From: an uncultured Planctomycetota bacterium
GTDB lineage: Bacteria > JAJVIF01 > JAPKYR01
DNA: 64,000 nucleotides
NCBI GenBank assembly: GCA_964354375.1
Contig: CAYGZQ010000002.1
Span: 44,866 to 108,865, forward strand
Reading direction: 5' to 3'
A program made the position numbers and the translations under genes. The notes below the pieces were generated by a model that was given only the letters and a program-made list of their open reading frames with translations, was not told where the DNA came from and searched no databases. This document shows, in pieces, positions 3,699-57,864 of this stretch; positions within the stretch are counted from its first letter, which is position 1; every line of letters begins with the position of its first letter.

Positions 3699-4934
3699 GT
3701 GGTGATAACCTCTATGCCCGAACGGCCCGTGCTGGTTCCTCAGAAAGTATGTAAAGACGAGCGCTACAAGGACCTGTTGGCTCGTGGACGACATAAGGGG
3801 TGGCTGACACGTAAGGAAGTTCGCGACACTGTCAGACAATGCCAGAGGGTCAGTCGCGAAGAGCTCGAAGCGATCTTCGAGTCCATCGAGAAGAAGCGAA
3901 TCGACCTCCTTCTGCGTCATCCGACTAACGGCAAGAAGGGCAACGGGGGTCTGAAGGTCAAGGGCAGGAAGACTGCTGAGGGGACCAACTCCGTCAAGAC
4001 TCCCCGACTCCGCTCGGCGCTTGACAAGCGGAAGTCCGACCCCAGGCATCTCCTGGACAGCGATGTCAAGTTCTCCCACGACATCAAGATTGACGATTCG
4101 GTCAAGATCTATCTTAGGGAGATCGGATGGGTTCCCCTGCTCAGGCCCGATGAGGAGGTCCATCTCGCCAAGATCATTGCCGGCGACAACTCCAGCGACC
4201 ACGAAAAGGATATAGCCCGCAAGAAGCTGACCACGGCGAACCTCAGGCTTGTCGTGTCCATAGCGAAGAAATACAAGACCCAGGGTCTGAGCTTCCTGGA
4301 CCTGGTACAGGAAGGCAACCTGGGCCTGATGCGCGCGGTACAGAAGTTCGACCACACCAAGGGTTTCAAATTCTCCACGTACGCCACCTGGTGGATCAGG
4401 CAGGCCATTACCCGCGCGCTTGCCGACCAGGAGGACATCATCCGCAAGCCGGTCCATATCGTCGAGAAAATCAACAAGCTCAAGAAGGCGTCCAGCGAGA
4501 TCTCCCAGAAAAAGGGCACCGAGCCGACCCCGTACGAGCTCGGCAGCAAGATGAACATGCCCGCAGCCAAGGTGCAGGAGATCCGCAAGATCGCGCAGAG
4601 ACCTATCTCATTGGAGACCCCCATCGGCGAGGATGAAAACTCCCAGCTTCAGCATTTCCTCGAGGACCAGCGAATACCTAACCCCGACAGCTCCGCGATG
4701 AAGCATCTTCTCAGGGAAGAGCTCGAGAAAGTGCTCAATACGCTTTCGGATCGCGAGCGTCGGGTGATCCGGAGAAGGTTCGGATTCGATGACGGGCACT
4801 ACTACACGCTGGAGGAGGTCGGACGGGAGTTCGGCGTCACCCGCGAGCGCATCAGGCAGATCGAGGCCAAAGCGCTGAGGAGACTGAAAAGTCAGAAGCG
4901 GAGCGTACGGGTGAAGGACTTCCTGGACCTGTGA
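3699..4934 (+). CDS. rpoD: RNA polymerase primary sigma factor (sigma-70 family)
   Basis: Regions 1.2-4 conserved: [101 protein letters not shown]. The start could be ATG 3714 instead. Confidence 0.9.
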
Positions 4935-4961
4935 CGCTGAAGTGTAGCTTGAAACAACGAA

Positions 4962-4990
4962 ACCCCTGCTGCAAAGCAGGGTTTTTTTCA
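4962..4990 (+). terminator. Rho-independent terminator after rpoD
   Basis: CCCCTGCT-GCAA-AGCAGGG stem-loop followed by TTTTTTT. Confidence 0.8.
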
Positions 4991-5024
4991 TTGCCGTCCA
5001 GGAGAATCTGCCCTGGTATCCGAG

Positions 5025-5272
5025 GCCCGAACGTAAGGGGCTGTTGAAAAACCTACTTCGATGCTGAATCGCGTGGCACCCTCAGGCGGAAAGGCTGCGT
5101 AAGCAGGCTTTCTGCCTGGGGGTGCTCGATCTATTAGCCCCTTTATTCATGCGGCATTCAGGTCGTCGGCTCAGCACCCCCAGGCTCGAGGACTCGCCTG
5201 AGGGTGCCACGCCTGATATGCCATCCTTGCGCAAAACTGGATTTTTTCAACAGCCCCTCACGGTCGGGCCCC
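5025..5272. repeat. MITE-like nested palindromic element (~250 bp)
   Basis: Perfect inverted pairs GGGGCTGTTGAAAAA (5037-5051)/TTTTTCAACAGCCCC (5244-5258) and GCGTGGCACCCTCAGGCG (5071-5088)/CGCCTGAGGGTGCCACGC (5196-5213); outer GGCCCGAACGT/ACGGTCGGGCC. Sequence modules are shared with the hairpins at 13761-13870 and 16737-16823. Confidence 0.65.
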
Positions 5273-5382
5273 GGAAACGGCGAATCGCAAGTCCACCGGT
5301 TCATCTGGATCATGCGAAGTGGTATATTGTTAATGTCAGGACCAATGGCGCTGCCCGCGTGCGGGCGGACAGGAGGAATCGC

Positions 5383-5910
5383 GTGATAGTTGAAGGATTT
5401 CGTTTCTCAAAAATCGTTTTCGCAGCAGCCCTGCTTTCGCTGATCACTGTGTCGCTCACAGCGTGCCCGCTTGGAGACCAGCGACGGGCTGCCTGGATGT
5501 CCCGCGCAAAAGGGACGCTCCGATCGATCGGCTCGTCGCAATTGGCTTACCAGAGCTCCAATGCGGACAAGTCGTACGGCACGTTCGAAGACCTCCAGAG
5601 TGCGGAGTATGTCGCGCAGGGCTATACCCTCGAAAACATGATAGAAGCGTACACCATCAGTTGGACCGCCTATTCGTCGTCCCCTGCGGAGGAAGCCGGC
5701 TCGGAGGAGGGGAAGCCGGTGTTCGAGGACACGATGGGTTCGACGAAGACGCACGGGCCCTATGACAGATTCACGATCATCGCCTATCCGGTGGCGAGCT
5801 TCGGCGCTCTCTGCACGTTCGCCGTCACGGAAGACCAGGTGGTGAGGGTCTACAATCCCGACAACCGCAACAAAGAGGCTGACATAAAGACCTGGGACCC
5901 GATATTGTAG
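5383..5910 (+). CDS. Small putative lipoprotein, function unknown
   Basis: GTG start preceded by AGGAGG (5371-5376). Signal peptide with lipobox (FSKIVFAAALLSLITVSLTAC). The upstream part of the track ORF covers the MITE-like element and is probably not coding. Confidence 0.5.
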   Translation: MIVEGFRFSKIVFAAALLSLITVSLTACPLGDQRRAAWMSRAKGTLRSIGSSQLAYQSSNADKSYGTFEDLQSAEYVAQGYTLENMIEAYTISWTAYSSSPAEEAGSEEGKPVFEDTMGSTKTHGPYDRFTIIAYPVASFGALCTFAVTEDQVVRVYNPDNRNKEADIKTWDPIL

Positions 5911-5962
5911 CGACGGTCAAGAACCTGAATCTCGAAGACCCGGAATCGTAAGATACAATACC

Positions 5963-7573
5963 ATGAGCACAATTGAACAAATCGACCTGCTGATTCGCGC
6001 TCGATATCCCGTGATTTACATCACCACCTGGGAGGAAAAGCGGGCGGTCGACGAGTTGAAGTTGCTCGCCGACAAGCAGGGCAAGGCCCTGATGGTCTGG
6101 AGCCAGTCGATCGGCTTCACGACCAAGATGGACGACGAATCGAAGCAGAAGATTCGCGATCCTCAGGCCGTGCTGGAGTACATTCTGGAAGCCGACGAGA
6201 TCGCGATCTATGTCCTGAAGGACTTCCATCCGTACATCATGGAGCCGGGCGTCATAAGGCTTCTCAGGGACCTCGCGGAGGCGCTTAAGACCAGCTACAA
6301 GACCCTGCTCATCCTGTCGCCCGTCCTGAGAATCCCCCCTGAACTCGAAAAGGACCTCACCGTCGTGGATTACACGCTCCCCGACGCCGATGAAATGCGA
6401 AGAATCCTGGGCGAGCTGATCGAGGCTGTGAAGGACAACCCCCGTGTGAAAATCAGTCTCAAGCCGGACGAAAAGGAGCGATTGATCCAGGCCGCGCTCG
6501 GGCTGACCGCTGTCGAGGCCGAGAACGCGTTCAGCCGCGTGCTGGTGTCGAAAGGTCATCTCACGGTGGACGACATCGACGACATCCTCGCCGAGAAGAA
6601 GCAGATCGTCAGAAAATCCGGGCTTCTCGAATATTTCGAGCCCGAGGATCAATTCAACCAGGTCGGCGGACTGAGACCGCTCAAGGCGTGGCTTCTAAAG
6701 CGGGGAAGCGCTTTCTCAGAGCAGGCGAGATCGTACGGACTCCCCGACCCGAGAGGCATCCTTCTGGTTGGAGTGCAGGGCTGCGGAAAGAGCCTGACCG
6801 CGAAGGCAGTGAGCAACTTATGGAAACTGCCCCTTGTCAGGCTCGATTTCGGGCGATTGTTTTCGAGCCTGGTGGGGTCGAGCGAGGAGAACATGAGGCG
6901 CGCGATGTCGGTGGCCGAGAGCATCGCGCCGTGCATCCTGTGGATAGACGAGATAGAGAAAGGCATGAGCGGCGTGGAGGATTCAGGCTCAATGGATGCC
7001 GGCACCGCCACGAGGGTATTCGGCACTTTCATCACCTGGCTTCAGGAGAAAAAGCGACCCGTGTTCGTGATCGCCACGGCGAACAACATAGACGCCCTCC
7101 CGCCCGAGCTGATGCGGAAGGGCCGTTTCGATGAGATTTTCTTTGTGGACCTTCCGAATCCCAGAGAAAGAGCGGAGATTTTCCAAATCCATCTCGAGAA
7201 GACCGGTCGCGATCCCGGGTCTTTCGACGCCCACATGCTTGTGCATGCGAGCAAGAACTTCTCCGGAGCGGAAATCCGCGAGGCGATCATCGCAGCCATG
7301 TACGATGGTTTCTCGGAGAAACGGGAGTTCACGTCGGAGGACATCAGGAGGAACATCGAGGACACAATCCCGATCGCCCGGACTATGCCGGACGACATCA
7401 AAAAACTGAGAAGCTGGGCGGGAGTGCGGGCGAGGAGAGCGAACGAGGTAATCGAGGAGGAGGAGACGATAAAGCCGGTAACCGACGACGATGTGGCGAG
7501 GGTGCACCGCACGAGGGTCGATTACCTGGCGGTCGGAGAGACCGGCGAAGAGAAACCGAAGTCGGTGCAATAG
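5963..7573 (+). CDS. AAA+ family ATPase, Ycf46-like (N-terminal non-ATPase domain + single C-terminal AAA module)
   Basis: Walker A GVQGCGKSL, Walker B ILWIDEIEK, sensor/Arg finger region ATANNIDALPPELMRKGRFDE. The ~230-aa N-terminal domain has no nucleotide-binding motifs. Confidence 0.7.
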   Translation: MSTIEQIDLLIRARYPVIYITTWEEKRAVDELKLLADKQGKALMVWSQSIGFTTKMDDESKQKIRDPQAVLEYILEADEIAIYVLKDFHPYIMEPGVIRLLRDLAEALKTSYKTLLILSPVLRIPPELEKDLTVVDYTLPDADEMRRILGELIEAVKDNPRVKISLKPDEKERLIQAALGLTAVEAENAFSRVLVSKGHLTVDDIDDILAEKKQIVRKSGLLEYFEPEDQFNQVGGLRPLKAWLLKRGSAFSEQARSYGLPDPRGILLVGVQGCGKSLTAKAVSNLWKLPLVRLDFGRLFSSLVGSSEENMRRAMSVAESIAPCILWIDEIEKGMSGVEDSGSMDAGTATRVFGTFITWLQEKKRPVFVIATANNIDALPPELMRKGRFDEIFFVDLPNPRERAEIFQIHLEKTGRDPGSFDAHMLVHASKNFSGAEIREAIIAAMYDGFSEKREFTSEDIRRNIEDTIPIARTMPDDIKKLRSWAGVRARRANEVIEEEETIKPVTDDDVARVHRTRVDYLAVGETGEEKPKSVQ

Positions 7574-7659
7574 CCCTGACTTCCGGCGGGCCGGAAAGCC
7601 TGCCCCGCATACCGGAACACAAACATTGGGGCTTCTTTATCAGTCCCGGAACAGGATAC

Positions 7660-8652
7660 ATGGTCTACAGCACAAGCGAGCCCTATGCGAGGAGAGGCGG
7701 ACTCCCGTCGCCGGAGATCGACACCTTTTCTTTATCGCTTTGCGGGGCGGAAGAGCAGGCGTTTGTTCATGGCTGCAACGCCCTGCTTCAGGGCAGGGAG
7801 GAGCGGGCGCTTTTCGAGTTTCGGAAGGCGGCGCGATGCACCAGGGAATTCATGGACGCGTGGTTCATGGCGGGATTCATCGAGCTTGCGAACGGCCGCG
7901 CCGAGAACGCCCGCCAGGCGTTCCTGCGGATTCTTCAGGACGAGCGCCCGTTTTTCGGGCTCCACATCCTGAGGTTCATGCCCCGCTTCCGGGCACATGT
8001 CAACCTCTTCGAGGATTTCGTTTTCCATATCATGCCCACGACCCCGGAGGTCGCCGCCGCGACCGCAAGGCTCTACATGATCGAGGAACGAGTCAAAGAG
8101 GCCAAAAAGATCATTCATCCGGCGTTCAGGGAGTACGGGGACAACACGGCTGTGCAGGTGATGTGGGCGCAGGTCATGATCGAGGATGATGCTCCGGACG
8201 CAGTGATCGACGAGATCGACAGGAGCATTCAGTTTCACAAGGGCAAAACCGAGACGGACCTGCTGTTGACCTACCTGGTCGGGCGCGCGTTTCTCGACAA
8301 GGGCGAATTCAGGACGGCCGTCTCGCACTGGGAGAGCATTTTCCATCACGCGACCGGCAAGAATCCGCGCCTGATTGACCGGTTTTCCATTTTTCTCGCG
8401 AAGGCATACGAATCCAAGGGATTCCTGCTGAATGTGTACGATATTCTCCGGAAGGTGAAGGACTCGACCATGCCGTACGATCCGGGCGTCTCGGTCGACT
8501 TCAAGCTCGGGCAGATCGTGGAGAAAATCAACACCTACAGGCGTCAGGGAATCAGAACCCCGCTTGAATTCGAGGGTGTTCACGACTTCCCGAGATGGAA
8601 GGATTCGGAAGGATACCTGGAGCTGGACGGTCCGGGCACCGCGATTCCGTAG
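7660..8652 (+). CDS. Hypothetical protein (helical, TPR-like composition)
   Basis: 330-aa ORF with ordinary protein-like composition. The antisense ORF 7732-8583 is Arg-rich and judged a shadow. Confidence 0.45.
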   Translation: MVYSTSEPYARRGGLPSPEIDTFSLSLCGAEEQAFVHGCNALLQGREERALFEFRKAARCTREFMDAWFMAGFIELANGRAENARQAFLRILQDERPFFGLHILRFMPRFRAHVNLFEDFVFHIMPTTPEVAAATARLYMIEERVKEAKKIIHPAFREYGDNTAVQVMWAQVMIEDDAPDAVIDEIDRSIQFHKGKTETDLLLTYLVGRAFLDKGEFRTAVSHWESIFHHATGKNPRLIDRFSIFLAKAYESKGFLLNVYDILRKVKDSTMPYDPGVSVDFKLGQIVEKINTYRRQGIRTPLEFEGVHDFPRWKDSEGYLELDGPGTAIP

Positions 8653-45746: not shown

Positions 45747-48524
45747 ATGAGCGAGAATCAAGACACGAGCGGGACGCCCGGGGGAGGTCCCCCAGAGGCA
45801 GTTCGCAAGATCCCCGATTTCACGCTATTCGTGGCAATCGATCTTGAGACTACGGGCCTGGACCCCGGCGAGGGCGAGATAATCGAGCTGGGGGCGGTTC
45901 GATTCGTCGACGGGAAAGAGTCGGATGCATTTCGCTCGCTTGTTAAACCGCAGGCGGGTTTCCCGGAGCGCAACCGCCGTCTCACCGGCATCGATCCCGC
46001 CGACCTCAGGGAGGCGCGTTCTCCAAAGGCCGCGCTGGAGGAATTCAAAGCTTTTCTGCGGGACGATCTTCTCGTGTCGCACAATGCGCCGTTCGACCTG
46101 AGTTTCCTTGCGACCCATCTCGGGAGGCACGGAATCGGACCGATCGAGAACCCGGCTCTATGCACACTTCATCTCGCGGCTTTCATGAATCCCGAGGCCG
46201 AGACGCTGCAGCTCGGCACGCTTGCGAAAAACCTCGGCGTGACGGTTATCGATCCTCATCGGGCCATGCAGGACGCCCGCATGGCGGGACGTGTGTTTCT
46301 CAGGCTGAAGGACGAGCTGGCGCGCTGGCCAGGCGTTTTCATTCGCCATCTCGCGGAATACCGGGGAAAGAGCATTGATCCTCTCTTTGACCTTCTGGAC
46401 TCGCTTGCAGGCGAAGGATCGCCGGAAGGCAATGCGTGGCGTCTGAGCGATGCGGTCCTGGGCCATCTGGCTGATCCCGAAATCCCCAGCGCACTTCCCC
46501 CGCTGCGAGTTCTCGCAGAGACTGAGGAGAGAAGAGAGACCGACGATCCGGCTCTCGCGGCCGAGGTCGCCCAAGCGTTTGGTCGTGGCGTGTTGACGCT
46601 TCTCGAGGACGCCCGTCCCGGCGCACCGCCGGTTTCCAGCTCGGTCCCTCCGAATGCGGCTGACATCCCGCGCTTTGTCGTGGGGATTCCCGATGAGAGC
46701 GCGCTTTCGACACTGCTGGGCTGGGACGACGGGGCCGACGGGGCCGATGATCCGAGTGGGCGATTCTACCTGGGATTGCGCAGCGAATACATATGCCTGA
46801 GGCGAGCGTTTGCCCCGGACGGACGTCCAGCCGGATGGCGCGAGCTGAGCCCGTACGAGCGTATCGTGCTCGCAAGATGGCTCGCGGGCACGCGTACCGG
46901 CCGGTTCGCGCGCGTGAACTGGTGGCTTCTCAACAACTACTCAGGTCTGAAAGGGCACCTCAACGCCCTGAGCGGCACCGAGGTCGAGTGCGTGGGTCCG
47001 GATGCTCCGCACGACGGGCCGTGCTTTGCGGAGAGGGCTCGGGAAATCGCTCGGTCGTCCGCCGGAGTGATTGTCCAGCAGAGGCATCTCTGCGCAAGGC
47101 CTCCAAGCTCACCGTCGTCCGAGCGGCTGCTCGACCCGTTCGATGCGTGCGTGATCGAGGGCGCGTCCCGGCTTGTGCACTCGGCGCGCGCAACCGAAAG
47201 CCGCGTGCTGGAGCTCGACTCGATCAAGCGACGGCTCACGCAGCTTAGCGAGTTCGCCGAGGGCGACGATACAGGCTTTGCGGATGCCTTGAACTCCGCC
47301 CTGTCCTCGATGAAAGACCTGCTGGAAGCGTGCAGGCGAACCATAGGTGCATTCCGCGACGCACGGTCGCGCGACAATCTCGGACCCATCACCGTGGACG
47401 ACGAATCATGGACCACCGACATCTTCAGCGAGCTTTCCGGCACCCTCCAGGTCGCTCAAGAGTCGCTTTACAAGGCCTCCGAAAGGATCGGCGAGATTCC
47501 CGCGTTAACTGAAGATGCGGCGGCGGTCGGCGTGATGCTGTCCAGGATCGCGGAGACGCTGAGGATGTTCAGAGAGGCGCAGGCTGTGTGGGCACTATCG
47601 CTGGAGGGTGCGCCCGCGCGAAATCCGAAGCGGATCACATTGCGACTGGAGCCTGTCGATGTCAGCGACGTAATCCGAAGGATCACGTCCGAAGCGAAGC
47701 TGGGCGTCATCGCGTCCGACCGGCAGTTGCGATACGCCGACTCGTTCGACCATCTTCGCTCGATGTGGGGATTGCAGGCCGATGTCGCGGTCACCGAGCG
47801 AGTTCTGACGGACCCGTCGCACATACCGCCCCCTCTGTTCCTGCCCGAGGATATCAACGCCCCGGCGGCGAGGTCGGGTCGGCGGTATCACTGGGAGAAG
47901 TACATGGAGCGCACCGCCAACCTCCTCAGGATGGTTGCCGATACGCTGGGGGGCAGGACCGTCGCAGCGTTCAGCGCGCACCACGAGCTGAGAAGGGTCC
48001 GCGAGCTTCTGGAACAGAACCCGCCAAGAGAGGCGATCGTTCTCGCGCAGTACATGGACGGCACGAAAAGCGCTCTCATCCGAGAATACCTCGCCAATCC
48101 AGCGACGCTGCTGCTGGGTGGAAGGAGTTTCCTTGACGGAGTCGATTTGCGTCCAGCCGGATTCACCGCGCTGATCCTGGTGAAGCTTCCGTTCGTGTCG
48201 CCGGAGGAGCCGCTGCATCGAGCGGCCCTGCGGCTGCAAGAGGCCCAGGGTCTGGACGGCATGACGTCCTATCTTGTTCCCCTTGCCGCCGAGACCTCCA
48301 ACAGGTGGATCGACAGCCTCATCAGCGGACCGATAACCTCTCCTGCGAACGCCGACAGCGACGCGTCCGCGGCGGAACCCGCAGGGGCAGTGATTCTTCT
48401 CGACCCCCGCGCCGTGCAAAACGAATGGGGAGACGAGCTGGTCTCGTCGCTCAATGCCCGCCCGGCGTACAGGCTTTCATTCCGCGAAATGCTCGCCAGG
48501 CTCAGCGAAATGGTCAGGGGATGA
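45747..48524 (+). CDS. DinG-family protein: N-terminal DEDDh 3'-5' exonuclease domain + degenerate helicase-like region with DinG-type C-terminal helicase domain
   Basis: Exo motifs FVAIDLETTGL, HNAPFDLSFL, HRAMQDARM. C-terminal LLLGGRSFLDGVDLRPAGFTALILVKLPFVSPEEP matches the DinG/XPD HD2 motif. No recognisable Walker A. Confidence 0.5.
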   Translation: MSENQDTSGTPGGGPPEAVRKIPDFTLFVAIDLETTGLDPGEGEIIELGAVRFVDGKESDAFRSLVKPQAGFPERNRRLTGIDPADLREARSPKAALEEFKAFLRDDLLVSHNAPFDLSFLATHLGRHGIGPIENPALCTLHLAAFMNPEAETLQLGTLAKNLGVTVIDPHRAMQDARMAGRVFLRLKDELARWPGVFIRHLAEYRGKSIDPLFDLLDSLAGEGSPEGNAWRLSDAVLGHLADPEIPSALPPLRVLAETEERRETDDPALAAEVAQAFGRGVLTLLEDARPGAPPVSSSVPPNAADIPRFVVGIPDESALSTLLGWDDGADGADDPSGRFYLGLRSEYICLRRAFAPDGRPAGWRELSPYERIVLARWLAGTRTGRFARVNWWLLNNYSGLKGHLNALSGTEVECVGPDAPHDGPCFAERAREIARSSAGVIVQQRHLCARPPSSPSSERLLDPFDACVIEGASRLVHSARATESRVLELDSIKRRLTQLSEFAEGDDTGFADALNSALSSMKDLLEACRRTIGAFRDARSRDNLGPITVDDESWTTDIFSELSGTLQVAQESLYKASERIGEIPALTEDAAAVGVMLSRIAETLRMFREAQAVWALSLEGAPARNPKRITLRLEPVDVSDVIRRITSEAKLGVIASDRQLRYADSFDHLRSMWGLQADVAVTERVLTDPSHIPPPLFLPEDINAPAARSGRRYHWEKYMERTANLLRMVADTLGGRTVAAFSAHHELRRVRELLEQNPPREAIVLAQYMDGTKSALIREYLANPATLLLGGRSFLDGVDLRPAGFTALILVKLPFVSPEEPLHRAALRLQEAQGLDGMTSYLVPLAAETSNRWIDSLISGPITSPANADSDASAAEPAGAVILLDPRAVQNEWGDELVSSLNARPAYRLSFREMLARLSEMVRG

Positions 48525-50214
48525 AAACGATCAGCCTTTCGTCCTGGTAGGCTACCTTGTACCCCGCGATGTCCCGGAAGAACTCGAGCGGCGGCACCTC
48601 CCAGTCGCCCACATCGAAGTGCTCGCCGAGCGACGTCTTAGCGGCCCACGGATGATACAGCACCATGTCGATCCCCAGGTCCTTCACAATCCGGGGATTC
48701 CAGTTGAAATCAAGAAAGAATTCCATCGCGCCGGGCGGAGGATAGGAGAGCTCTCCATCCATTGTGGGAATTTGATGGATCGTCTGCTGCAGGAGGAAGT
48801 GTCTTCGCTGGGGAAGCAGCGGATAATTGATAATCAGATCGGGGGGATTGGGGTCGCCGGTCGCGTCGGAGTAGATCTCTGCCAGGTTTTTCAGTGCGGG
48901 ATGACGATACTCATTTCCCGAGATCGGAATCGGCGCGACCGTTGTTTCCAGCACGATCAAAACCGGCAACAGCCACAGGAGGATCGCACGTCGCCATCCG
49001 GTCCGCCACACCGGCCCGAGTCCCGCGACCCATCCGGCCGCCCCGATTCCCAACGCCAGTGTAAACGGCCCGACAAACCTCGCCGGCACTCTGACCAGGT
49101 TCAGACCCGGGATCTCCGACCACAGTCTGAACGGTCCCCAAATCGGAACTGAGTGCCCGAACAACGGGATTTTCGGCTGCAAACTCAGGATCGTCAGGGT
49201 GGGTCCGAGCGCGAGAATGAAGAGGATCAATCCGAGCCAGCACCATGCGCGGGTCGTGGGATTGCGCCGGAACCACGAGAGGAACCCAAGCACGATCGCG
49301 ATCATTCCAAGCGACGCCACTCCCTCCGTCGCGTTGCCCGGGATGGTCGCAGCCAGCGGTTTCGAGAGCGCTCCAAGGAATGGATGGTCCGGCGGTGGAA
49401 GAACGGCCCATGTGGGATCGAGAACATACATCTTGCCCATCTCCACCTGCCACGCGGTCCCCAGGATACGCGATTCGTCCCAGGCCGCGATAATAAGCGG
49501 GCTCAGAATCAGAGTCGCCGCCAGCCAGGGCAGAATCGCCCTCGTCCAGCGCTGCATGCCGCCGAGGTGGTCTCTCAGGCCAAATTGTCCAATCAACATC
49601 AGGCCAAAGAACACGACTGCAGAGAACGCCAGTTGGTACCAGTGCGACAGAGCGGCGGCAAGGAGCATCAGAATCGACAGGACGCCGTCCCGCCATCCGC
49701 CGTCGCGCGTGAACTTGAGCAGGTAATAGACGCTGAGCGGGAGCCATCCGCTCGATACCGTGCCGAGCTGCGAGAGGTGCATTGCGTGATACACGCTGAA
49801 ACCATAGATAACGCCTGCGATCACACTCGCGGGACGGTTCCCGGTCAGGTACCAGGCGAGTATGTATGCTCCCCACGCTCCCAGAACATAATGGAAGATT
49901 ATGAGCAGATTGTATGACGCGAAATCCCCGACAAACGGAATCAACAGCTCCTGGATGAACGAGTTGAGCGGGCTCAGGTCATGGAGGATGAGCGATGTAC
50001 CTACGGGAGCGTACTGGCAGGGGGTCCACCAGACCGACAGATTGGGATCCGCGAGCGCTTTCCGGAACCACCATCCGTTCCAGATGAACTGGAACGCATC
50101 GCCGCCGTACGGAATCCCCTGATTGAACCTGAGCGCGAGCGGCCACGTGACCGCGATCGCGGCGACGACGAAGGACAGAAGGACGCAAAGGTGCGATCTA
50201 TTGTGGGGGTTCAT
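48514..50214 (-). CDS. Polytopic integral membrane protein, putative GT-C-type glycosyltransferase
   Basis: At least 12 predicted TM segments with a large periplasmic C-terminal domain. The assignment rests on topology only. Confidence 0.35.
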   Translation of the reverse strand: MNPHNRSHLCVLLSFVVAAIAVTWPLALRFNQGIPYGGDAFQFIWNGWWFRKALADPNLSVWWTPCQYAPVGTSLILHDLSPLNSFIQELLIPFVGDFASYNLLIIFHYVLGAWGAYILAWYLTGNRPASVIAGVIYGFSVYHAMHLSQLGTVSSGWLPLSVYYLLKFTRDGGWRDGVLSILMLLAAALSHWYQLAFSAVVFFGLMLIGQFGLRDHLGGMQRWTRAILPWLAATLILSPLIIAAWDESRILGTAWQVEMGKMYVLDPTWAVLPPPDHPFLGALSKPLAATIPGNATEGVASLGMIAIVLGFLSWFRRNPTTRAWCWLGLILFILALGPTLTILSLQPKIPLFGHSVPIWGPFRLWSEIPGLNLVRVPARFVGPFTLALGIGAAGWVAGLGPVWRTGWRRAILLWLLPVLIVLETTVAPIPISGNEYRHPALKNLAEIYSDATGDPNPPDLIINYPLLPQRRHFLLQQTIHQIPTMDGELSYPPPGAMEFFLDFNWNPRIVKDLGIDMVLYHPWAAKTSLGEHFDVGDWEVPPLEFFRDIAGYKVAYQDERLIVFIP

Positions 50215-51062: not shown

Positions 51063-51878
51063 TTATGCATTTTTCTCGGCTCTTAGCATCCTCGAGAGGG
51101 TCGCGAAGCCCTCGACCGTCACTTCCTGCGCGCGCGCGGATGGGCTGACCCCCATGCGTTGAATGATGTCCTCGATTTTCGCCGCCGGCATTTCCGGGAA
51201 TCCGGCGTGCAGATTGTTCTTGAGCGTCTTACGTCTCATGTGAAAGGCAACCTGCACCGTCCGCTCGAAGGTGTCGACAAGATCCGGCTCGACCAGCGGC
51301 GTCTTGCGGGGGGTCATCCTGATGAGCGTGCTCGTCACCTTCGGAGGCGGCTTGAACGCATCGGGAGGAATGTTGAACAGGATTTCGGTTTCGAGAAATG
51401 CGCCCAGTGAGACCGACAGCCGACCGTAGCTGTGATCGGACGGTTTCGACGCTATTCTCTGGGCGACCTCTTTCTGAATCAGGAGAATCGCTCGCCGGAA
51501 ATCGAGCCCGCTGTAGGCCAGCCTGAGGAGCAGAGGAGAGGTGATGTAGTACGGCAGATTCCCGGTGATGACGAGCGGCTCGACAGGTTCGAGGCCGAGT
51601 GCGGTCCGATCCCACTCGATCTTCAGCGCGTCCGCCTCGCGGACTTCGACATTCCCTCCCCAGGACGGCGCGAATTTCCTGAGATGCTCCGCCCATCCGG
51701 AATCGATCTCAAAGACGATGAGGCGTTTGCATCGGGACGCGATGACGCGCGTGAGTGCGCCCCTGCCGCCGCCGATCTCGACGCAGGCTTCCTCCTCGCG
51801 AAGCTCGATCGCGTCGGCGATTCGGCCGGTCGCGCGCTTGTCCACAAGCCAGTGTTGTCCCAGTTTCGCCCGAGTCAT
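51063..51878 (-). CDS. rsmA: 16S rRNA (adenine1518/1519-N6)-dimethyltransferase
   Basis: GQHWL, EIGGGRGALT, NLPY motifs. Confidence 0.85.
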   Translation of the reverse strand: MTRAKLGQHWLVDKRATGRIADAIELREEEACVEIGGGRGALTRVIASRCKRLIVFEIDSGWAEHLRKFAPSWGGNVEVREADALKIEWDRTALGLEPVEPLVITGNLPYYITSPLLLRLAYSGLDFRRAILLIQKEVAQRIASKPSDHSYGRLSVSLGAFLETEILFNIPPDAFKPPPKVTSTLIRMTPRKTPLVEPDLVDTFERTVQVAFHMRRKTLKNNLHAGFPEMPAAKIEDIIQRMGVSPSARAQEVTVEGFATLSRMLRAEKNA

Positions 51879-51950
51879 TGATCGAAAGCATATCACGTCC
51901 CCGACATGCGGGACACACTAGCCAGGTGCCGCCTATCCGAGCCGTGTGGC

Positions 51951-52050
51951 ACCCTTAAGAATCGTCCTCGATTCTTAAGGGTGCTGCTATGGAACGAGGC
52001 ATATCAAAGCCACCCATAAGAGGCCGGGAAGCCTCTTATGGGTGCCACCC
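51951..52050. repeat. Two adjacent REP-like hairpins with GTGGCACCC bases (GCACCCTTAAGAATCG/CGATTCTTAAGGGTGC and GCCACCCATAAGAGGC/GCCTCTTATGGGTGCCACC)
   Basis: Seen directly, immediately upstream of the AT-rich island. Confidence 0.65.
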
Positions 52051-52201
52051 CAGCTTTCGTATGCTAGACTGAATGGCACCAAGAACCGTCCTCGGCGTGC
52101 CGGCGGAGCACCACTGCTTCACAGACGAGGAGCTGAACTTCATCGTCAACTATGACATCAAGTACCGGGTGGGGAGACGGTCGGGGGAGGAAGAAAAACG
52201 A

Positions 52202-52921
52202 GTGACTGCCAAATTGCTGTATAACATATACTGCGACGAGAGCTGCCATCTGGAATCTACTGACGCTTATGGAATGGTTATCGGCGCGATATGGTGCCCA
52301 ATCAACAGTTCCAGGGCTATAGCTGATGAGGTGCGCGAACTTAAGACAAAACACGGAATGGGTGTAAGGCGCGAGATAAAGTGGACTGGATTATCATCCG
52401 CGAAACTGCACTTTTATCTGGAGGTGTTGGATTACTTTTTCAAGAGGGACGACCTCAATTTCAGAGCTATTGTCATTCCTGATAAAGGAATTCTGGACCA
52501 CAAAGCATTTAATCAGGAGCACGGGACCTGGTATTACAAGATGTTCTATGACCTTCTAAAGATGCTGTTTGTTCCGAACTCATCATACAGGATATTTCTA
52601 GATGTAAAGGACACACATTCAGGATACCGGGCAGAGCAACTGCGAGGGATTCTGGAACGTCGCGCAAACCAAATGGAGAACTGTGTTATTGAGCTTATTC
52701 AGAATGTCCGTTCTCACGAAGTCCAGCAGATTCAGCTTGTTGATTTGTTGATCGGTGCAATCAGTTACGCCAGCCGCGGTCTGAAATCAAGCGATGCCAA
52801 ACTTGAGTTTGTTACCCGTTTCGAAAGATTGGTGGGAGGGTCAATAATAAATACAACACCGGCATCCCGAACAAAGGTAAACATTCTTAGATGGGATCCT
52901 GATCGGGGGCGGCAAAGCTGA
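52202..52921 (+). CDS. DUF3800-family protein (low-GC island gene 1)
   Basis: N-terminal NIYCDESCH motif characteristic of DUF3800. GTG start after a GGGAGGAAG RBS. Local GC is about 45%. Confidence 0.6.
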   Translation: MTAKLLYNIYCDESCHLESTDAYGMVIGAIWCPINSSRAIADEVRELKTKHGMGVRREIKWTGLSSAKLHFYLEVLDYFFKRDDLNFRAIVIPDKGILDHKAFNQEHGTWYYKMFYDLLKMLFVPNSSYRIFLDVKDTHSGYRAEQLRGILERRANQMENCVIELIQNVRSHEVQQIQLVDLLIGAISYASRGLKSSDAKLEFVTRFERLVGGSIINTTPASRTKVNILRWDPDRGRQS

Positions 52922-52922
52922 T

Positions 52923-53399
52923 ATGGATTGGCTGCCACCACTGGTACATATTAATGAAACTGGTGGAAATGTCGCTCAATATTACGAGCTGCTATATCGG
53001 CACTATCTAAATGACCTTGTATATGATCCACCGGAATTTGAGGGTACTCAGATCAGAACCATGGTAAATCCGTTGAAACAGGAAAAGGAAGCAGGATTCT
53101 GGCATATCCTAGAAGGTGGGAACGAACATGTTCTCGATGATTCACTGAGGCGTCATGAGAGAATTCGATGGGTAAGACCTATCATTCAGGCTGTTGGCAC
53201 AAAGGAGGTTCTGATGTGGAAAAGGCCTGTGAGGGAAGGTGTCACAAAACCACATGTTGTTCTTCCAGATTTCAGTTATATCGTTATTCTTCAAGAAGGC
53301 AAGGTGGCAGTAACTCTCATAACGGCTTTCCCAGTGGATCGTGCGAGGAGGAGACAAGACTATCGTAAGGAATGGGAGAGATGTCAACAGGGAGTCTAA
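52923..53399 (+). CDS. Hypothetical protein (low-GC island gene 2), translationally coupled to the DUF3800 gene
   Basis: ATG 1 nt after the upstream stop. 158 aa, no recognised domain. Confidence 0.5.
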   Translation: MDWLPPLVHINETGGNVAQYYELLYRHYLNDLVYDPPEFEGTQIRTMVNPLKQEKEAGFWHILEGGNEHVLDDSLRRHERIRWVRPIIQAVGTKEVLMWKRPVREGVTKPHVVLPDFSYIVILQEGKVAVTLITAFPVDRARRRQDYRKEWERCQQGV

Positions 53400-53587
53400 A
53401 AAAGCAATGCCGCCGAAGCGACATTTAAGCTGTGCTTACAACATGGTAAGTCAGCAATGTTCTTATACCACAAACCAGGCTGTTTGTCAAGAGAGGAAAG
53501 GTCTGCTAACAGGTTGGAAATCCAAGCCCGTCATCGAGCACATCGAGTGGGTGCCACCCGACCACGTTGTTGCCGTTATGCGGGACT

Positions 53588-53670
53588 TCAATAGTCCGCC
53601 CGGATTCGTGCGTAGAAGGGCTGCGGCGGGAACGGATAACCTCTCCAGAAGGCGATGGTGCTCGTGTCGC
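53588..53670. repeat. 83-bp direct repeat copy A (duplicate of the 3' end of lipoprotein gene D, 1 mismatch)
   Basis: Identical except one C/T to 55206-55288. Encodes ...TIAFWRGYPFPPQPFYARIRADY-stop on the minus strand. Confidence 0.8.
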
Positions 53671-53687
53671 CGGCCGGCAGGCGGCGG

Positions 53688-54188
53688 TTACAAATCCGAG
53701 AATCGGTCGTCTGCGACGGTCCGGTCCACCGGTGAGCTGTCGAGCCAGCCGCTGTGGCTTTCGGGAAAAGCATCAAACCGGGGGCAGTAGGGTTTGATGT
53801 CGAGAAGCGGTGTCCCATCCACAACATCGATTCCGGCCACATGAAGCCGACCGCCGTCGATCCGCAGAAGGCGCACGGCGGACAAGCCGATGGGATTTGG
53901 ACGGCATGGTGCGCGAGTGGCGAACAGGCCGCGCTCCCGGACTTCCCGGAAGGGCTGGACCAGAAGTCGCGATCGTGGAGCGCGGTGGAGCCAGTAAACA
54001 AGCCAGACGCGTTCAAAGCCCTCCAGGTCCTGAAGCCCTGCCAGGTACTCCGGGAACACCTCTACGATGCCCTCTGTGTCGCCTGCATATACCGGCTGGA
54101 TGGGGACGCTCTCTATCTCCTTGAAAGGCGAATGAATTACGCCGATGGCCTTAAGCTCCGGAATTCTCTCTGAGTGGCGTTCAGTCAT
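53688..54188 (-). CDS. tsaA: tRNA (adenine37-N6)-methyltransferase TsaA/TrmO (YaeB family)
   Basis: IGVIHSPF...ERVWLVYWLH...RPNPIGLS..L..I.G..L.V.G.D.VDGTPLLDIKPY hallmark blocks. ATG at 54188. Confidence 0.75.
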   Translation of the reverse strand: MTERHSERIPELKAIGVIHSPFKEIESVPIQPVYAGDTEGIVEVFPEYLAGLQDLEGFERVWLVYWLHRAPRSRLLVQPFREVRERGLFATRAPCRPNPIGLSAVRLLRIDGGRLHVAGIDVVDGTPLLDIKPYCPRFDAFPESHSGWLDSSPVDRTVADDRFSDL

Positions 54189-54585
54189 GGTGACAACACT
54201 CACCGGTCGTGCTGCGGGTGGCAAGGTCACCCCGATAGTATGCAAGCGCCGCCGCTTCCGGATCCATTGGCTCGGACAGGATGAGGGCCCTGATCCCGGA
54301 AGATTCCAGGGCGGCAACGGCCCGCGGTCCCATACCGAGGCAGATGACCGCCTCGCAATCGGCGAGCATTGCCATACGATCCTGGTGGCCATGTTCCGTC
54401 TTACCATGGCAGTTGCGCTCACCGTGTCCGTGCTCGCCCTTGCCGTCGCCGCACGAGCCAGCAGCCCGGCGCACTTCGCGATGCGACACCTTGCCGTCCT
54501 CGACCTCGAGAACAAGGAAACCGTCGCAATGGCCGAAGTGCGCCGCGATGCTTCTGCCGTCATCCGTAGCACACGCTAGCTTCAT
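54181..54585 (-). CDS. NifX/NifB-type dinitrogenase FeMo-cofactor-binding-domain protein with His-rich insert
   Basis: MKLACATDDGRSIAAHFGHCDGFLVLEV typical of the NifX-NifB (PF02579-like) fold. Insert GDGKGEHGHGERNCHGKTEHGHQD. Confidence 0.65.
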   Translation of the reverse strand: MKLACATDDGRSIAAHFGHCDGFLVLEVEDGKVSHREVRRAAGSCGDGKGEHGHGERNCHGKTEHGHQDRMAMLADCEAVICLGMGPRAVAALESSGIRALILSEPMDPEAAALAYYRGDLATRSTTGECCHHD

Positions 54586-55121
54586 TTGGATTCACTCCCG
54601 GTCGGTGTTGGGCTGTCCTTGGACGTGCGACGGGGGGTCGCCCGACCGCCGCCCTTGCGGCTGCAGCCCTGACCGCGCCCTCCCGGGCCACCGTGACGCG
54701 CCCGGCCGCGGTCCTCTTCCGCACGGTGCAGATTCTTTCCGCTGCATTGGGGGCATTCGCGGGGTCTCCCGGTGCCGTGCGGAATCTCCCACGTGTGTTG
54801 ACAGTCCGAGCAACGGAAACGTCTCATAGTCGTGAGCATGATGTTTCCTCCTTCCAGTTTGAGCGCCTTGCCTTTCACAACGGCCTCGGCGACCTTTCGC
54901 CGAGCGGACTCGATCAACCGAGTGAAAGTGGGGCGTGATATGTTCATTTTACCGGCCGCCTCCTCCTGGTACAGGCCTTCAAGGTCGGCCAGCCGTATCG
55001 CCTCCAGTTCATCGAGCCCCAGGACGACTTCCTCAAGGGCCGTCATTGGCACGCCCCGGGGCTTGAAGTAGACGCACACGGGCTGATAGGCGATTCGACG
55101 GCAGCAAGGCGGACGAGGCAT
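54582..55121 (-). CDS. DUF134/UPF0251-family protein with C-terminal zinc ribbon
   Basis: MPRPPCCRRIAYQPVCVYFKPRGVP...LEAIRLADLEGLYQEEAAGKMNISRPTFTRL. CxxC...CxxC at the C-terminus. ATGA overlap with the downstream gene. Confidence 0.7.
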   Translation of the reverse strand: MPRPPCCRRIAYQPVCVYFKPRGVPMTALEEVVLGLDELEAIRLADLEGLYQEEAAGKMNISRPTFTRLIESARRKVAEAVVKGKALKLEGGNIMLTTMRRFRCSDCQHTWEIPHGTGRPRECPQCSGKNLHRAEEDRGRARHGGPGGRGQGCSRKGGGRATPRRTSKDSPTPTGSESK

Positions 55122-55205
55122 ATGCTATCTTCTCACTACCCCACATTATGAACAAAAGTTCAAAATAGTCAAGCCCGAAATTGCACTTTCGCCGACAAAC
55201 AACAC

Positions 55206-55288
55206 GTCAATAGTCCGCCCGGATTCGTGCGTAGAAGGGCTGCGGCGGGAACGGATAACCTCTCCAGAAGGCGATGGTGCTTGTGTCG
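55206..55288. repeat. 83-bp direct repeat copy B (native 3' end of lipoprotein gene D)
   Basis: See copy A. Confidence 0.8.
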
Positions 55289-57864
55289 CTGTCCCAGCAG
55301 GGATCGGTGATTCCGGCAAACGAGCACCAGGTTCCCTGATAGGGGGTGTTGTCGTTGACAGATCCCATTTCGATCAGGTTGCCGTTGCGATCGATCAGAG
55401 CGACATCGGTTCTCCAGCCTGATGTCGCGGCATCGTGCCAAAAATCGATATATGCGTTGCCGTCGGGGTCGCATGCGATGCCGGTGACATTCTCGGACTG
55501 TGAGCCGGGAATGATCTTTCCCTGCCATGAGCCCGAGCGATTGTTGGTGTATGCGGCCTGGGTCATTGTGACGCACCAGGCGACATGGACCGTCCCGAGG
55601 TAATCCACCGCCACTGCGGCGAAGTTCGGATATCCCGACACGCCCGAAGATGCCACTTCGATGGAGCCCCATGTGCCGGACGCATTGCGTTTCATGTACA
55701 TGATGGTGGATGCGCCGGGACCGGTCCAGACGAGATGAAGGTTGCCGAACCGGTCGGCGACCATGTCGGGACGCATGTGGTAGATGTCGGGGTTGACCTG
55801 GGTTGTGAGATCGACCGGCGCAGACAGACTCCCCGGCTGTCCATGAACATAGACCAGCTTGTAGTTGCCGCTGTACGAGGGCATGACGATGTGGATCTCG
55901 TCGTCGGGAGTGACGGCGATCGTCGATTCTCCTTCATACCCGGACGGGGAAGTGAAGGTATGAATCGTGGTGAAGTTCTGGACGGCATTGCCCGGCGTGA
56001 CCATTGCGTAGTAGTAGGCGTGCGACGTGCTGTAATAGCTCGTCCATACGATGTGCGCGTTGCCCTGCGAATCCGGGGCGACATCGGCGACCTCACCGTA
56101 CGCATACGAGCCGAGACTCACCTCCTGGAAGCTGGTGGGATTGGTCATGGAGGACCGTACGAACCTCGTGGGAAGGGCGTAGACCAGGTAGATCGTCCCG
56201 TCCGGTGTGACGAACGAGTTGACGAAATTGGAGGCCCCGACATTTCCCATCTGTCCGTCGGGATTTTCGAGGTCGGTGAAACCCTTCGGCGCGACGTAGA
56301 CCGGGGTAGCGGACGTCATCGCGGACGCATTGGACTCGGTCGCGTCGATATCGACAGCCTTGACCACATAATCGTATGTCGTGCCGGTCATGAGAACGGC
56401 GGTGTCGATGTAGTCGGTATCGGTGAGTATCGTGGGGTTGAGGGGGTCCAGAAAGTCGAAACCGGGAGCGGTCGAGAGTTTCCGGTAGACGTTGTAACCG
56501 GCGAGCGTGGGCCAGTCGACGGGATCCCAGAAGAGATGGACCACTCCGGCAGCGGCGCAGTTATCGAGGCCGGTGGGCGTGGGGATCGAAACGGGCTCCT
56601 CGGTGAGGATCGGCGCGTCCCAGAACAGGAAAGCCGCAAGAGGCTCCTCGGGATAATCGAAGCCCGAGATGCCCTCGAGATTCGGCGCATAATCGGAGGG
56701 GGACTCGGACTCGACCGCGACCATCAGAGTCTGACCGGTCAGGCCGGATGGAGTAACGTCCGCGATCTCCACATGGAACACCGATGAAGTCGGGCCGTCC
56801 GGAGACACGACGGCTGCGGGCAGAACATCTATCGGCGTATCGAAGAGATCAGGGGACTCGACCCATATCGCGGCGACTTCCCCCGGAACCCCGAGCGGAT
56901 TTTCCACAGCCTGCCAGTCGTAGACGGTAATGTCGAGGACAAGATCGCCGCCGTTCTCGGTCGGCGAGACATACCATGCGTCGGAGCCGGCATCGGCGAC
57001 GGCCAGCATGTACGCTTCCTGGCAATTCGCGCTGAGAGAATAGTCCTCGGGGAGATAGACCGGGCCGTCGCCTGTCGGCGCGTCCCAGCTCGCATCGACC
57101 GCGTAATTGAATTCCACCACCGGCGAGCCCGCGTCCATCGGGAAATGAATCATGTAGCGCCGCTCGTTGAAGCCAGGGGATGTGGCGAAAAATCCCCGGG
57201 TGGCGGGATCGATCACAAGCTCGTCCTCGCTTTCAAGATCGTCCGCGAAATACTTGTAGGGGTTCAGCGTCGCCGTCGCCGTGAAACCGGGAGAGGCCAG
57301 CGCCCCCTGAGTGTATCCGAAGATCGTATTGTATGTCGTGAATTCGGTGGGATTCCACCAGCGCGTCCAACCGTCGGAGTTCAGGAGCCTCGCTTCATCG
57401 CCTGCAGCGTAAAGGAGATTGCTGTAATGGTCGCTCAGGACGCTGCCGTCCGACATGAAAATCCCCCTCACGTCGAAGCCGGAATACATCGATATCCCCG
57501 GAAACGGATGATGGAGCATGACGTCGACCGCGAAGAGGCCCTCAGGGATGTCGCTTGCGAACGGGTCGATCGACACGGTGATGCGGTTGATCGGCGAGAT
57601 CGGCTTCTGCATGAACATGGTCACGTTCGCGTTGAACTCGGCCGTTCTGGACGGTTCAACCGTCACCTCGAGCGTACGTGTGTCGATGCCGATTTCGTAG
57701 ACGCCCCACACGACGCGAGAGCTGCCCAAGCAGGATGCCCGGTGACCGCTGAGGTCGGGCGCCGCCGTTGGACCGAGAACTGAATCACCTGCGGTCGAGC
57801 AACCGACGATCATCGACACGAGCAGAATAATCCCCAGCCAAATAATGTTTACACGGGTGTTCAT
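55207..57864 (-). CDS. Large surface lipoprotein, paralog D (885 aa): conserved N-domain + beta-propeller/YVTN-like C-terminal region
   Basis: Lipobox MIVGC. N-domain motifs LHHPFPG..SGFDVRGI, SDGWTRWWNPTEF, NPYKYFADDL, NYAVDASWDAP, YSLSANCQEAY. Confidence 0.7.
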   Translation of the reverse strand: MNTRVNIIWLGIILLVSMIVGCSTAGDSVLGPTAAPDLSGHRASCLGSSRVVWGVYEIGIDTRTLEVTVEPSRTAEFNANVTMFMQKPISPINRITVSIDPFASDIPEGLFAVDVMLHHPFPGISMYSGFDVRGIFMSDGSVLSDHYSNLLYAAGDEARLLNSDGWTRWWNPTEFTTYNTIFGYTQGALASPGFTATATLNPYKYFADDLESEDELVIDPATRGFFATSPGFNERRYMIHFPMDAGSPVVEFNYAVDASWDAPTGDGPVYLPEDYSLSANCQEAYMLAVADAGSDAWYVSPTENGGDLVLDITVYDWQAVENPLGVPGEVAAIWVESPDLFDTPIDVLPAAVVSPDGPTSSVFHVEIADVTPSGLTGQTLMVAVESESPSDYAPNLEGISGFDYPEEPLAAFLFWDAPILTEEPVSIPTPTGLDNCAAAGVVHLFWDPVDWPTLAGYNVYRKLSTAPGFDFLDPLNPTILTDTDYIDTAVLMTGTTYDYVVKAVDIDATESNASAMTSATPVYVAPKGFTDLENPDGQMGNVGASNFVNSFVTPDGTIYLVYALPTRFVRSSMTNPTSFQEVSLGSYAYGEVADVAPDSQGNAHIVWTSYYSTSHAYYYAMVTPGNAVQNFTTIHTFTSPSGYEGESTIAVTPDDEIHIVMPSYSGNYKLVYVHGQPGSLSAPVDLTTQVNPDIYHMRPDMVADRFGNLHLVWTGPGASTIMYMKRNASGTWGSIEVASSGVSGYPNFAAVAVDYLGTVHVAWCVTMTQAAYTNNRSGSWQGKIIPGSQSENVTGIACDPDGNAYIDFWHDAATSGWRTDVALIDRNGNLIEMGSVNDNTPYQGTWCSFAGITDPCWDSDTSTIAFWRGYPFPPQPFYARIRADY

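Follow-up and report, generated by a model that had tools for sequence, protein, structure and literature searches.

The window analysed here is a 64-kb stretch of a contig from an uncultured Planctomycetota bacterium (CAYGZQ010000002.1), numbered from its first nucleotide. Between ksgA and a lipoprotein locus it carries a short AT-rich island with two plus-strand genes: gene A (52202-52921), which encodes a DUF3800 protein of 239 amino acids (aa) when read from a GTG at 52202, and gene B (52923-53399), which encodes a protein of 158 aa. The stop codon of A (TGA, 52919-52921) and the start codon of B (ATG, 52923-52925) are separated by a single nucleotide, so that the two genes follow each other on the same strand in the order A-B. 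Profile and sequence comparisons identify the pair as PDC-M04, a phage-defence candidate of PADLOC, and as a homologue of the rlfA-rlfB genes of phage P1. The G+C content (GC), taken in windows of 300 nt, drops from 0.58-0.64 to 0.43-0.46 over approximately 52200-53450 and returns to above 0.61 beyond that point, and the segment holding both coding regions (52202-53399) has 45.3% GC vs 59.3% for the remainder of the 64 kb. The initial annotation of this DNA had reported such an AT-rich island, with a DUF3800 gene bearing the motif NIYCDES and a 158-aa second gene whose ATG lies one nucleotide past the upstream stop, and it was accurate on each of these points. Its further statement that no named system could be matched does not hold, as a PADLOC search returns PDC-M04 and phage P1 encodes homologues of both proteins.

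The open reading frame (ORF) of gene A had been annotated (P0006) as spanning 52073-52921 on the plus strand, beginning with an ATG at 52073 and encoding 282 aa that include NIYCDES. More than 1900 homologues of A were found, typically 232-240 aa long, and their alignments begin at the position of the GTG at 52202, which sits 12 nt 3' of a GGAGG. Since the lengths of the homologues fit a start at 52202, this GTG is probably the true start codon, and the ATG at 52073 would represent an over-extension of the N-terminus through a miscalled start. Among the 43 codons by which the annotated ORF exceeds this length is an in-frame stub of 28 codons (52097-52180, plus strand, reading ...FTDEELNFIVNYDIKYRVG) that matches positions 1070-1097 of the 1100 positions of the PADLOC profile REase_MTase_IIG (E 2.7e-7), i.e. 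its extreme C-terminus. The segment is the fossil 3' end of a type IIG (Eco57I/MmeI-like) restriction-modification (RM) gene. The sequence FTDEEL(D/N)FI(I/V)NYDIKYR(M/V)G also ends an intact 1129-aa gene of the Eco57I/MmeI type in an Anaerolineae metagenome-assembled genome (L018), where the intact type IIG gene is located ~200 nt upstream of an A homologue and the identity to the stub is 89% over 66 nt. The island has thus kept the truncated 3' part of a restriction gene as a trace of an earlier, RM-embedded context.

In the 282-aa ORF of gene A, residues 50-277 align with positions 5-229 of the 232-position PDC-M04A profile PDLC04353 at E 1.6e-82, and residues 2-155 of protein B align with positions 4-157 of the 162-position PDC-M04B profile PDLC04357 at E 2e-38; 11 further M04B profiles also match gene B. 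As set out by Payne et al. (bioRxiv 10.1101/2024.01.29.577857), the "phage defence candidates" (PDC) were picked for having homologous cassettes nested within operons of the BREX, DISARM or type I RM systems. They are explicitly presented as untested candidates, with PDC-M04 given in the supplementary table as CAS_00034, FAM_00014>>FAM_00043 (bioRxiv 10.1101/2024.01.29.577857). The name PDC-M04 had no match in full-text literature and was met in that supplementary table only. The pair described here agrees with PDC-M04 in that both profiles are matched over their full length and in the order, strand and adjacency of the genes, and relatives of it likewise occur within operons of type I RM or DISARM-like systems. 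It differs in that the copy here lies outside an intact defence system, with just the 28-codon type IIG stub upstream. The instance is an ordinary further copy of a catalogued candidate family, which a standard PADLOC run would label PDC-M04.

The relationship to phage P1 is supported for both proteins. Protein A is 43% identical to P1 RlfA over 232 aa (BLASTP E 4e-76). For protein B, a tblastn search against phage genomes recovered P1 RlfB and P7 RapB (E 3e-6), and a B family profile built from 125 sequences aligned to P1 RlfB with an hhalign probability of 99.9 (E 5.8e-37). In the P1 record (NC_005856), rlfA (DUF3800, 234 aa) is followed by rlfB (154 aa), the start of which overlaps the rlfA stop. 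The P1 genes and their P7 counterparts rapA-rapB therefore share with the pair here the gene order, the start/stop coupling and the protein sizes (234/154 aa vs 239/158 aa). Their settings differ, as the P1 pair is carried by a phage-plasmid downstream of kilA-repL/oriL and behind a C1 operator, and is annotated as "possibly associated with lytic replication", whereas the pair here is chromosomal, at the ksgA/lipoprotein locus, with neither the kilA-repL-oriL linkage nor a C1 operator and with no replication or phage genes nearby. We found no statement in the searchable literature that PDC-M04 and P1 rlfAB are homologous.

The association between the two genes is close to invariant. A B homologue, typically of ~160-180 aa, lies directly 3' of A in 84 of 84 genome and metagenome loci, starting either within the A gene or within a few nucleotides of its end, and every one of these proteins matches the B profile at E 3e-21 or lower. 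The initial annotation had named the lack of such co-occurring homologues of the second gene as something that would count against its reading, and the opposite was found. Among viral sequences in IMG/VR, A was present on 102 contigs, of which 80 were fetched, and 76 of those 80 encode an adjacent B; three of the four exceptions are truncated by the end of their contig, and the fourth carries B at a distance of 2.8 kb. This last contig (L116, IMG/VR UViG_2923491830_000001, positions 3923-7883) stands alone among 164 loci in having A separated from B, and as B there lies ~2.8 kb 3' of A on the same strand, an insertion between A and B is indicated. Pairwise identities within the A family are correlated with those within the B family (Mantel r 0.54, a value reached by 0 of 999 permutations), and their medians, 62% among the A proteins and 39% among the B proteins, show that B diverges faster. 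These patterns indicate that A and B form an obligate, co-evolving and translationally coupled pair.

Protein A matches the Pfam family DUF3800 (PF12686) with 43.8 bits (cut-off 21; E 5.3e-11) over positions 1-148 of the 149 in the profile, and it matches phrog_3732 with E 1e-44. Its AlphaFold2 (AF2) model has a predicted local distance difference test score (pLDDT) of 88.1, and the top 19 Foldseek matches of the model in the PDB are RNase HII, H2A and H3 structures, which places it among RNase H-like folds; they include archaeal RNase HII (1eke, E 1.6e-6) and human RNase H2A, with E-values ranging to 1e-3 and a probability of 1.0. Residues D12, E13, D134, D137 and D181 are invariant across 120 A homologues and are all present here. 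D12-E13, within NIYCDES, and Q178-L-V-D181, in which Q178 is conserved in at least 90% of the 120 homologues, correspond to the N-terminal DE motif and the C-terminal QxxD motif that form the DUF3800 signature (PMC7736814). Protein A thus resembles RNase HII and eukaryotic RNase H2A in its predicted fold and in having Asp and Glu side by side on the first strand. It differs from RNase HII in that its gene is mobile, non-syntenic and paired with B, and in the additional residues C11, C15, H16 and C32, which are also conserved among A homologues; the C11/C15/H16 cluster, together with C32, could bind a metal. The structural model points to a predicted RNase HII-like, metal-dependent nuclease. 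Sequence-level searches with the RNase HII models of Pfam and NCBIfam gave no match to A, and searches of PDB sequences with the A and B family profiles returned noise only.

Protein B is predicted with high confidence (AF2 pLDDT 93.6) as a small alpha/beta protein in which helices lie against a four-stranded antiparallel sheet. Foldseek found no significant match to this model in the PDB, with NTF2-like, cystatin-like, RelE and HigB structures all at E 0.13 or above (the partial matches to RelE and HigB, at E 0.2-0.8, are non-significant), and a single match in BFVD, to another protein of the B family. Searches of Pfam, NCBIfam and PDB sequences gave no match for B, and NCBIfam gave none for A either. 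A RelE-like identity for B was considered and rejected, as hhalign gave a probability of 0.1 against E. coli RelE. Fusions of B to other domains were not seen among the best 150 of 1912 clusters found in 1.84 billion representatives, all of which are stand-alone proteins of ~120-255 aa. Residues H61, R77, E79, W83 and W99 are invariant in the B family. The most conserved motif of the family, ExxRxPDLRRCERIxW, reads NEHVLDDSLRRHERIRW in the protein described here, with the changes R71L, P73D, D74S and C78H. The invariant R77, E79 and W83 are retained. Its nearest relatives, L002 and L009, also depart from the motif, and the three seem to make up a separate sub-clade within the B family.

The history of the island can be read from a metagenome contig, L086, which is collinear with the window and encodes a KsgA that is 97% identical. 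DNA identity to L086 is 92.7% up to position 51919 and 88% from 55196 onward (88-93% over the flanks), and between the collinear blocks L086 has ~385 nt containing neither a gene nor the island. Homology to L086 resumes at window position 53548, which is the right-hand copy of TGGGTGCCACCC, an exact 12-nt direct repeat found at the two edges of the island and with only two exact copies in the 64 kb; the left copy (52039-52050, plus strand) overlaps the end of the second of two hairpins described below, and the right copy (53548-53559, plus strand) reads TGGGAGCCATCCGAC in L086. We conclude that horizontal transfer placed a segment of ~1.6 kb (about 51920-53545) in the interval from ksgA to the lipoprotein locus. 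Its GC, far from that of the host, implies that the cassette arrived recently, and the 12-nt repeat would be compatible with microhomology-mediated recombination. The island encodes no recombinase, transposase or integrase (two ORFs only, profile searches), and the whole window contains no tRNA, hence no tRNA attachment site, and no Rfam family at gathering score; the island therefore does not have the features of a transposon, an insertion sequence or an integrative element.

The cassette continues past gene B in a 3' tail (53400-53458, plus strand) that is 84% identical at the nucleotide level to the stretch following B in its closest relatives, L002 and L003, and that contains a small hairpin (53406-53425), which is terminator-like when read on the minus strand. 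The nearest relative of the cassette (A 67% and B 60% identical) shares this 59-nt tail and is located in an unrelated context, beside ychF. In 47 of 71 other genome loci, the GC of the cassette is at least 3 points below that of its flanks. Had the two genes been widespread housekeeping neighbours of ordinary GC in related genomes, the initial annotation would have been contradicted; this low GC in 47 of 71 loci and the absence of the pair from L086, at ~90% DNA identity, speak in its favour.

The same comparison bears on the explanation that A is a housekeeping paralogue of RNase HII and B an ordinary neighbour. The fold-level likeness of A to RNase HII is the sole point in support of it, and it is opposed by the lack of any Pfam or NCBIfam RNase HII match, by the atypical GC, and by the occurrence of the pair in phages and RM operons. 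Because the site is empty in L086, in which no such gene is found at the same locus, the reading of A as a cellular RNase HII (rnhB) is effectively refuted.

It could also be argued that the cassette is an inert passenger, intact in sequence, which arrived together with a broken restriction gene and is neither expressed nor used in this host. The truncation of the upstream type IIG gene to 28 codons, the GC that is still far from the host's and the lack of a convincing sigma-70-type promoter upstream of A would all agree with this; a scan for such promoters found 2 sites in the region vs 2.3 expected by chance, neither of them upstream of A. That scan took in one promoter type only. Moreover, both ORFs are full length in comparison with their homologues, all invariant residues are present and the coupling of A and B is preserved, and we give little credence to the view that the cassette is merely carried.

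Relatives of the cassette are widespread. A scan of one genome per species identified a relative of A (42-52% identity) in at least 573 species genomes, from phyla that include Chloroflexota, Acidobacteriota, Desulfobacterota, Bacteroidota, Planctomycetota, Cyanobacteria, Chlamydiota and Patescibacteria, and the pair is found on 106 plasmids, most of them P1-like. The upstream neighbour is a type I S subunit in 10-11 of 73 loci and the downstream neighbour is HsdR in 7-9 of 72 loci, with the order hsdS-A-B-hsdR verified in three cases (L015, L023 and L046). Other neighbours seen are MmeI/Eco57I methylases, HsdM, GmrSD, DUF4276 and integrases; one locus (L025) has a DISARM-like DUF1156/SNF2 context and another (L068) a reverse transcriptase together with HsdR. 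Elsewhere, as at the island described here, the cassette adjoins housekeeping genes of various kinds.

These neighbourhoods are relevant to the suggestion that the pair assists the replication of mobile replicons. In that case A would process R-loops or RNA primers where transcription activates an origin, B would serve as a cofactor, and the chromosomal copy would be a phage or plasmid leftover. In P1 and P7 the pair is positioned directly 3' of repL/oriL and is C1-controlled, PHROGs labels the B family "replication protein", and the RNase HII-like fold of A would suit such a role. Yet the replication label in P1 is positional only, according to the GenBank notes. Both rlfA and rlfB were non-essential in a CRISPR interference (CRISPRi) screen of P1, being dispensable for lytic growth (PMC10695390), and P1-like plasmids have lost them or carry other genes in their place (PMC6906374). 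No replication initiator lies beside the pair here or in 80 genome loci, where the recurrent neighbours are instead RM subunits, and the cassette moves alone, as its closest relative adjoining ychF illustrates. A replication function is accordingly a poor candidate for explaining the family, and we regard it as very unlikely.

A toxin-antitoxin-like addiction module deserves somewhat more attention. Here A would be a toxic nuclease and B its antidote, and the pair would stabilize the DNA that carries it with no dedicated anti-phage role. A two-gene, translationally coupled cassette in which the smaller partner evolves faster, with a patchy, horizontally transferred distribution and with carriage on phage-plasmids (P1 itself and the mostly P1-like plasmids counted above), is what such a module might look like. 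The P1 annotation (L085, NC_005856 51685-52200) further lists four predicted sigma-70 promoters for rlfB inside rlfA, which would permit separate expression of an antidote; should these promoters prove genuine, lysogens could produce RlfB while RlfA is repressed, a pattern of the antidote/toxin type. On the other hand, no known toxin fold or family, of the type II RelE/ParE kind or other, and no DNA-binding antitoxin domain was found in either A or B, the B profile has no similarity to RelE, CRISPRi knock-down of P1 rlfA or rlfB produced no essentiality phenotype (PMC10695390), and plasmid addiction does not explain why the pair is preferentially embedded in RM and DISARM operons. We consider an addiction function in its own right unlikely, while noting that toxin-antitoxin and abortive-infection functions are not mutually exclusive.

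The interpretation that we favour, with a probability of roughly 0.6, is that the island is a mobile nuclease-plus-regulator cassette of the RlfA-RlfB type that acts as a conflict module, probably against phages. The proteins A and B would act as a complex. In it, A would be the effector and cleave nucleic acids, most plausibly RNA or RNA-DNA hybrids, and B would be its cognate regulator, either by inhibiting A or by sensing a phage or other invading replicon and then releasing or directing A. The module would thereby provide abortive-infection-like activity against phages or mobile elements and would travel as a self-contained cassette. A conflict module is suggested because of the genomic context, because B evolves faster, and because DUF3800 recurs as a plug-in nuclease beside varied partners, as in retron type VII, Cas12a2/a3 and Cas13 CASK loci. 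The initial annotation, which proposed a horizontally acquired, coupled module with a nuclease-like DUF3800 protein at its core and a defence or accessory role, is supported in this reading, with the defence activity itself being predicted.

The comparison with other DUF3800 systems is instructive in this regard. Published work describes DUF3800 as a nuclease with the RNase H fold, found repeatedly at retron type VII, Cas12a2/a3 and Cas13 loci (PMC7736814, PMC10910872, PMC12669027, PMC13594972). Protein A has in common with the DUF3800 proteins of retron type VII, with the tetratricopeptide repeat (TPR)-DUF3800 proteins associated with Cas12a2/a3 and with Csx32 of Cas13 CASK the Pfam family, the RNase H-like fold and the DE and QxxD motifs, and in each of these systems DUF3800 is paired with a different, system-specific partner. 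The locus here differs in having no reverse transcriptase, non-coding RNA, TPR protein, CRISPR array or cas gene, its partner being a member of the RlfB family. It is not a type VII retron, as no reverse transcriptase ORF lies beside the pair and Rfam identified no retron RNA. None of the Rfam motifs DUF3800-I to DUF3800-X matched within 51700-53800 at E up to 10, the hits in that interval being noise only (mir-2004, istR and SNORD100, E 2.5-7.8), and no Rfam family, the DUF3800 motifs included, reached gathering score in the window or in 7 related loci.

Several observations weigh against a conflict module. The neighbours of the cassette here are ksgA, a polysaccharide deacetylase gene and genes for TrmO-like, NifX-like and DUF134 proteins, so that it is solitary, with no defence genes adjoining. 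The role proposed for B is drawn solely from its coupling, co-evolution and evolutionary rate, with no fold or domain match to go with them. The similarity of A to RNase HII amounts to a template modelling score of only ~0.45-0.5 and an identity of 11-16%. The control by C1 and the position at the lytic origin in P1 do not fit a gene expressed from a prophage to protect its host, and would suit a replication-accessory or lytic-phase role. In the searchable literature, we found no anti-phage phenotype for any member of PDC-M04/RlfAB.

A more specific extension would make RlfAB/PDC-M04 a mechanistically new system of immunity or of competition between elements, in which an RNase H2-like nuclease acting on RNA-DNA hybrids, such as the primers and R-loops of invaders, is gated by an infection-sensing partner of a previously unseen fold, and in which P1 would use the module lytically against its competitors. 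We put this forward as a speculative and, on balance, doubtful possibility.

The two hairpins at the left edge of the island had initially been taken to bound it. Hairpin 1 (51946-51984; stem 51949-51964/51969-51984, a perfect 16 bp) is located upstream of the divergently transcribed ksgA, and hairpin 2 (52011-52048; stem 52011-52024/52031-52044, a perfect 14 bp) follows it. Both resemble repetitive extragenic palindromic (REP) elements, and as their arms, 51946-51983 and 52011-52048, are 76% complementary, they form an inverted doublet of the REPIN type. The segment 51940-52055 folds with a z-score of -7.6, and 0 of 200 shuffled sequences were equally stable. The sequence GGGTGCCAC has 5 copies in the window vs 0.5 expected, and the design GCACCC...GGGTGC recurs at 5076-5125 and 5174-5207, within a 147-nt element (5068-5214; -54.9 kcal/mol, z -9.4). 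An intergenic hairpin family can thus be recognized at 5068-5214, at 51946-52048, and in L086 at 5925-5985 and ~5775-5815, in which the base of the stem is conserved (G(T)GGCACCC ... GGGTGCCAC), the upper stems are variable, and REPIN-like inverted doublets are frequent. The perfect stems at the left edge are real, but the hairpins are not termini of the island: because L086 has a hairpin of its own at the corresponding spot and similar elements occur at 5068-5214, they are intergenic REP/REPIN-like repeats belonging to the host backbone.

The right flank is also more complex than an insertion between ksgA and the lipoprotein locus would imply, a position that the empty site in L086 otherwise bears out. 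The cassette is followed by a fossil copy of the 3' end of the lipoprotein gene (53586-53668) and then by a three-gene block. The last ~83 nt of the gene for the 885-aa lipoprotein (...STIAFWRGYPFPPQPFYARIRADY*) are near-exactly duplicated, at 53586-53668 and 55205-55288, 1.6 kb apart, and L086 likewise has two copies of this 3' end, ~320 nt apart. Because the copies are more alike within each genome than they are to their orthologues, gene conversion or independent duplication is suggested. The block between the copies (53671-55195, minus strand) encodes a TrmO-like tRNA methyltransferase domain, a NifX/dinitrogenase FeMo-cofactor-binding protein and a DUF134 protein with a zinc ribbon. In L086 the block is missing, and 228 nt containing a REP-like hairpin take its place; as the GC of the block is host-like, both loss in L086 and gain here are possible. 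The lipoprotein itself (55207-57864) and a 566-aa polytopic membrane protein (48514-50214) have no Pfam match at E up to 1e-3.

The locus offers a before/after comparison, with the island present here and missing in a ~90% identical relative, and with a restriction stub kept upstream of the cassette. It documents cassettes leaving RM operons and settling alone beside housekeeping genes. The homology between PDC-M04 and P1 rlfAB means that a genetically tractable E. coli system is available for genes that have long been unexplained, and B stands out as a protein with a high-confidence model and no solved-structure match that is strictly co-inherited with a DUF3800 nuclease. Knowing the target of DUF3800 would inform retron, Cas12a2/a3 and Cas13 loci too. 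If RlfAB/PDC-M04 does prove to be a new system of immunity or competition, this would provide a function, and an E. coli model, for a family present in at least 573 bacterial species genomes from many phyla, as well as in phages.

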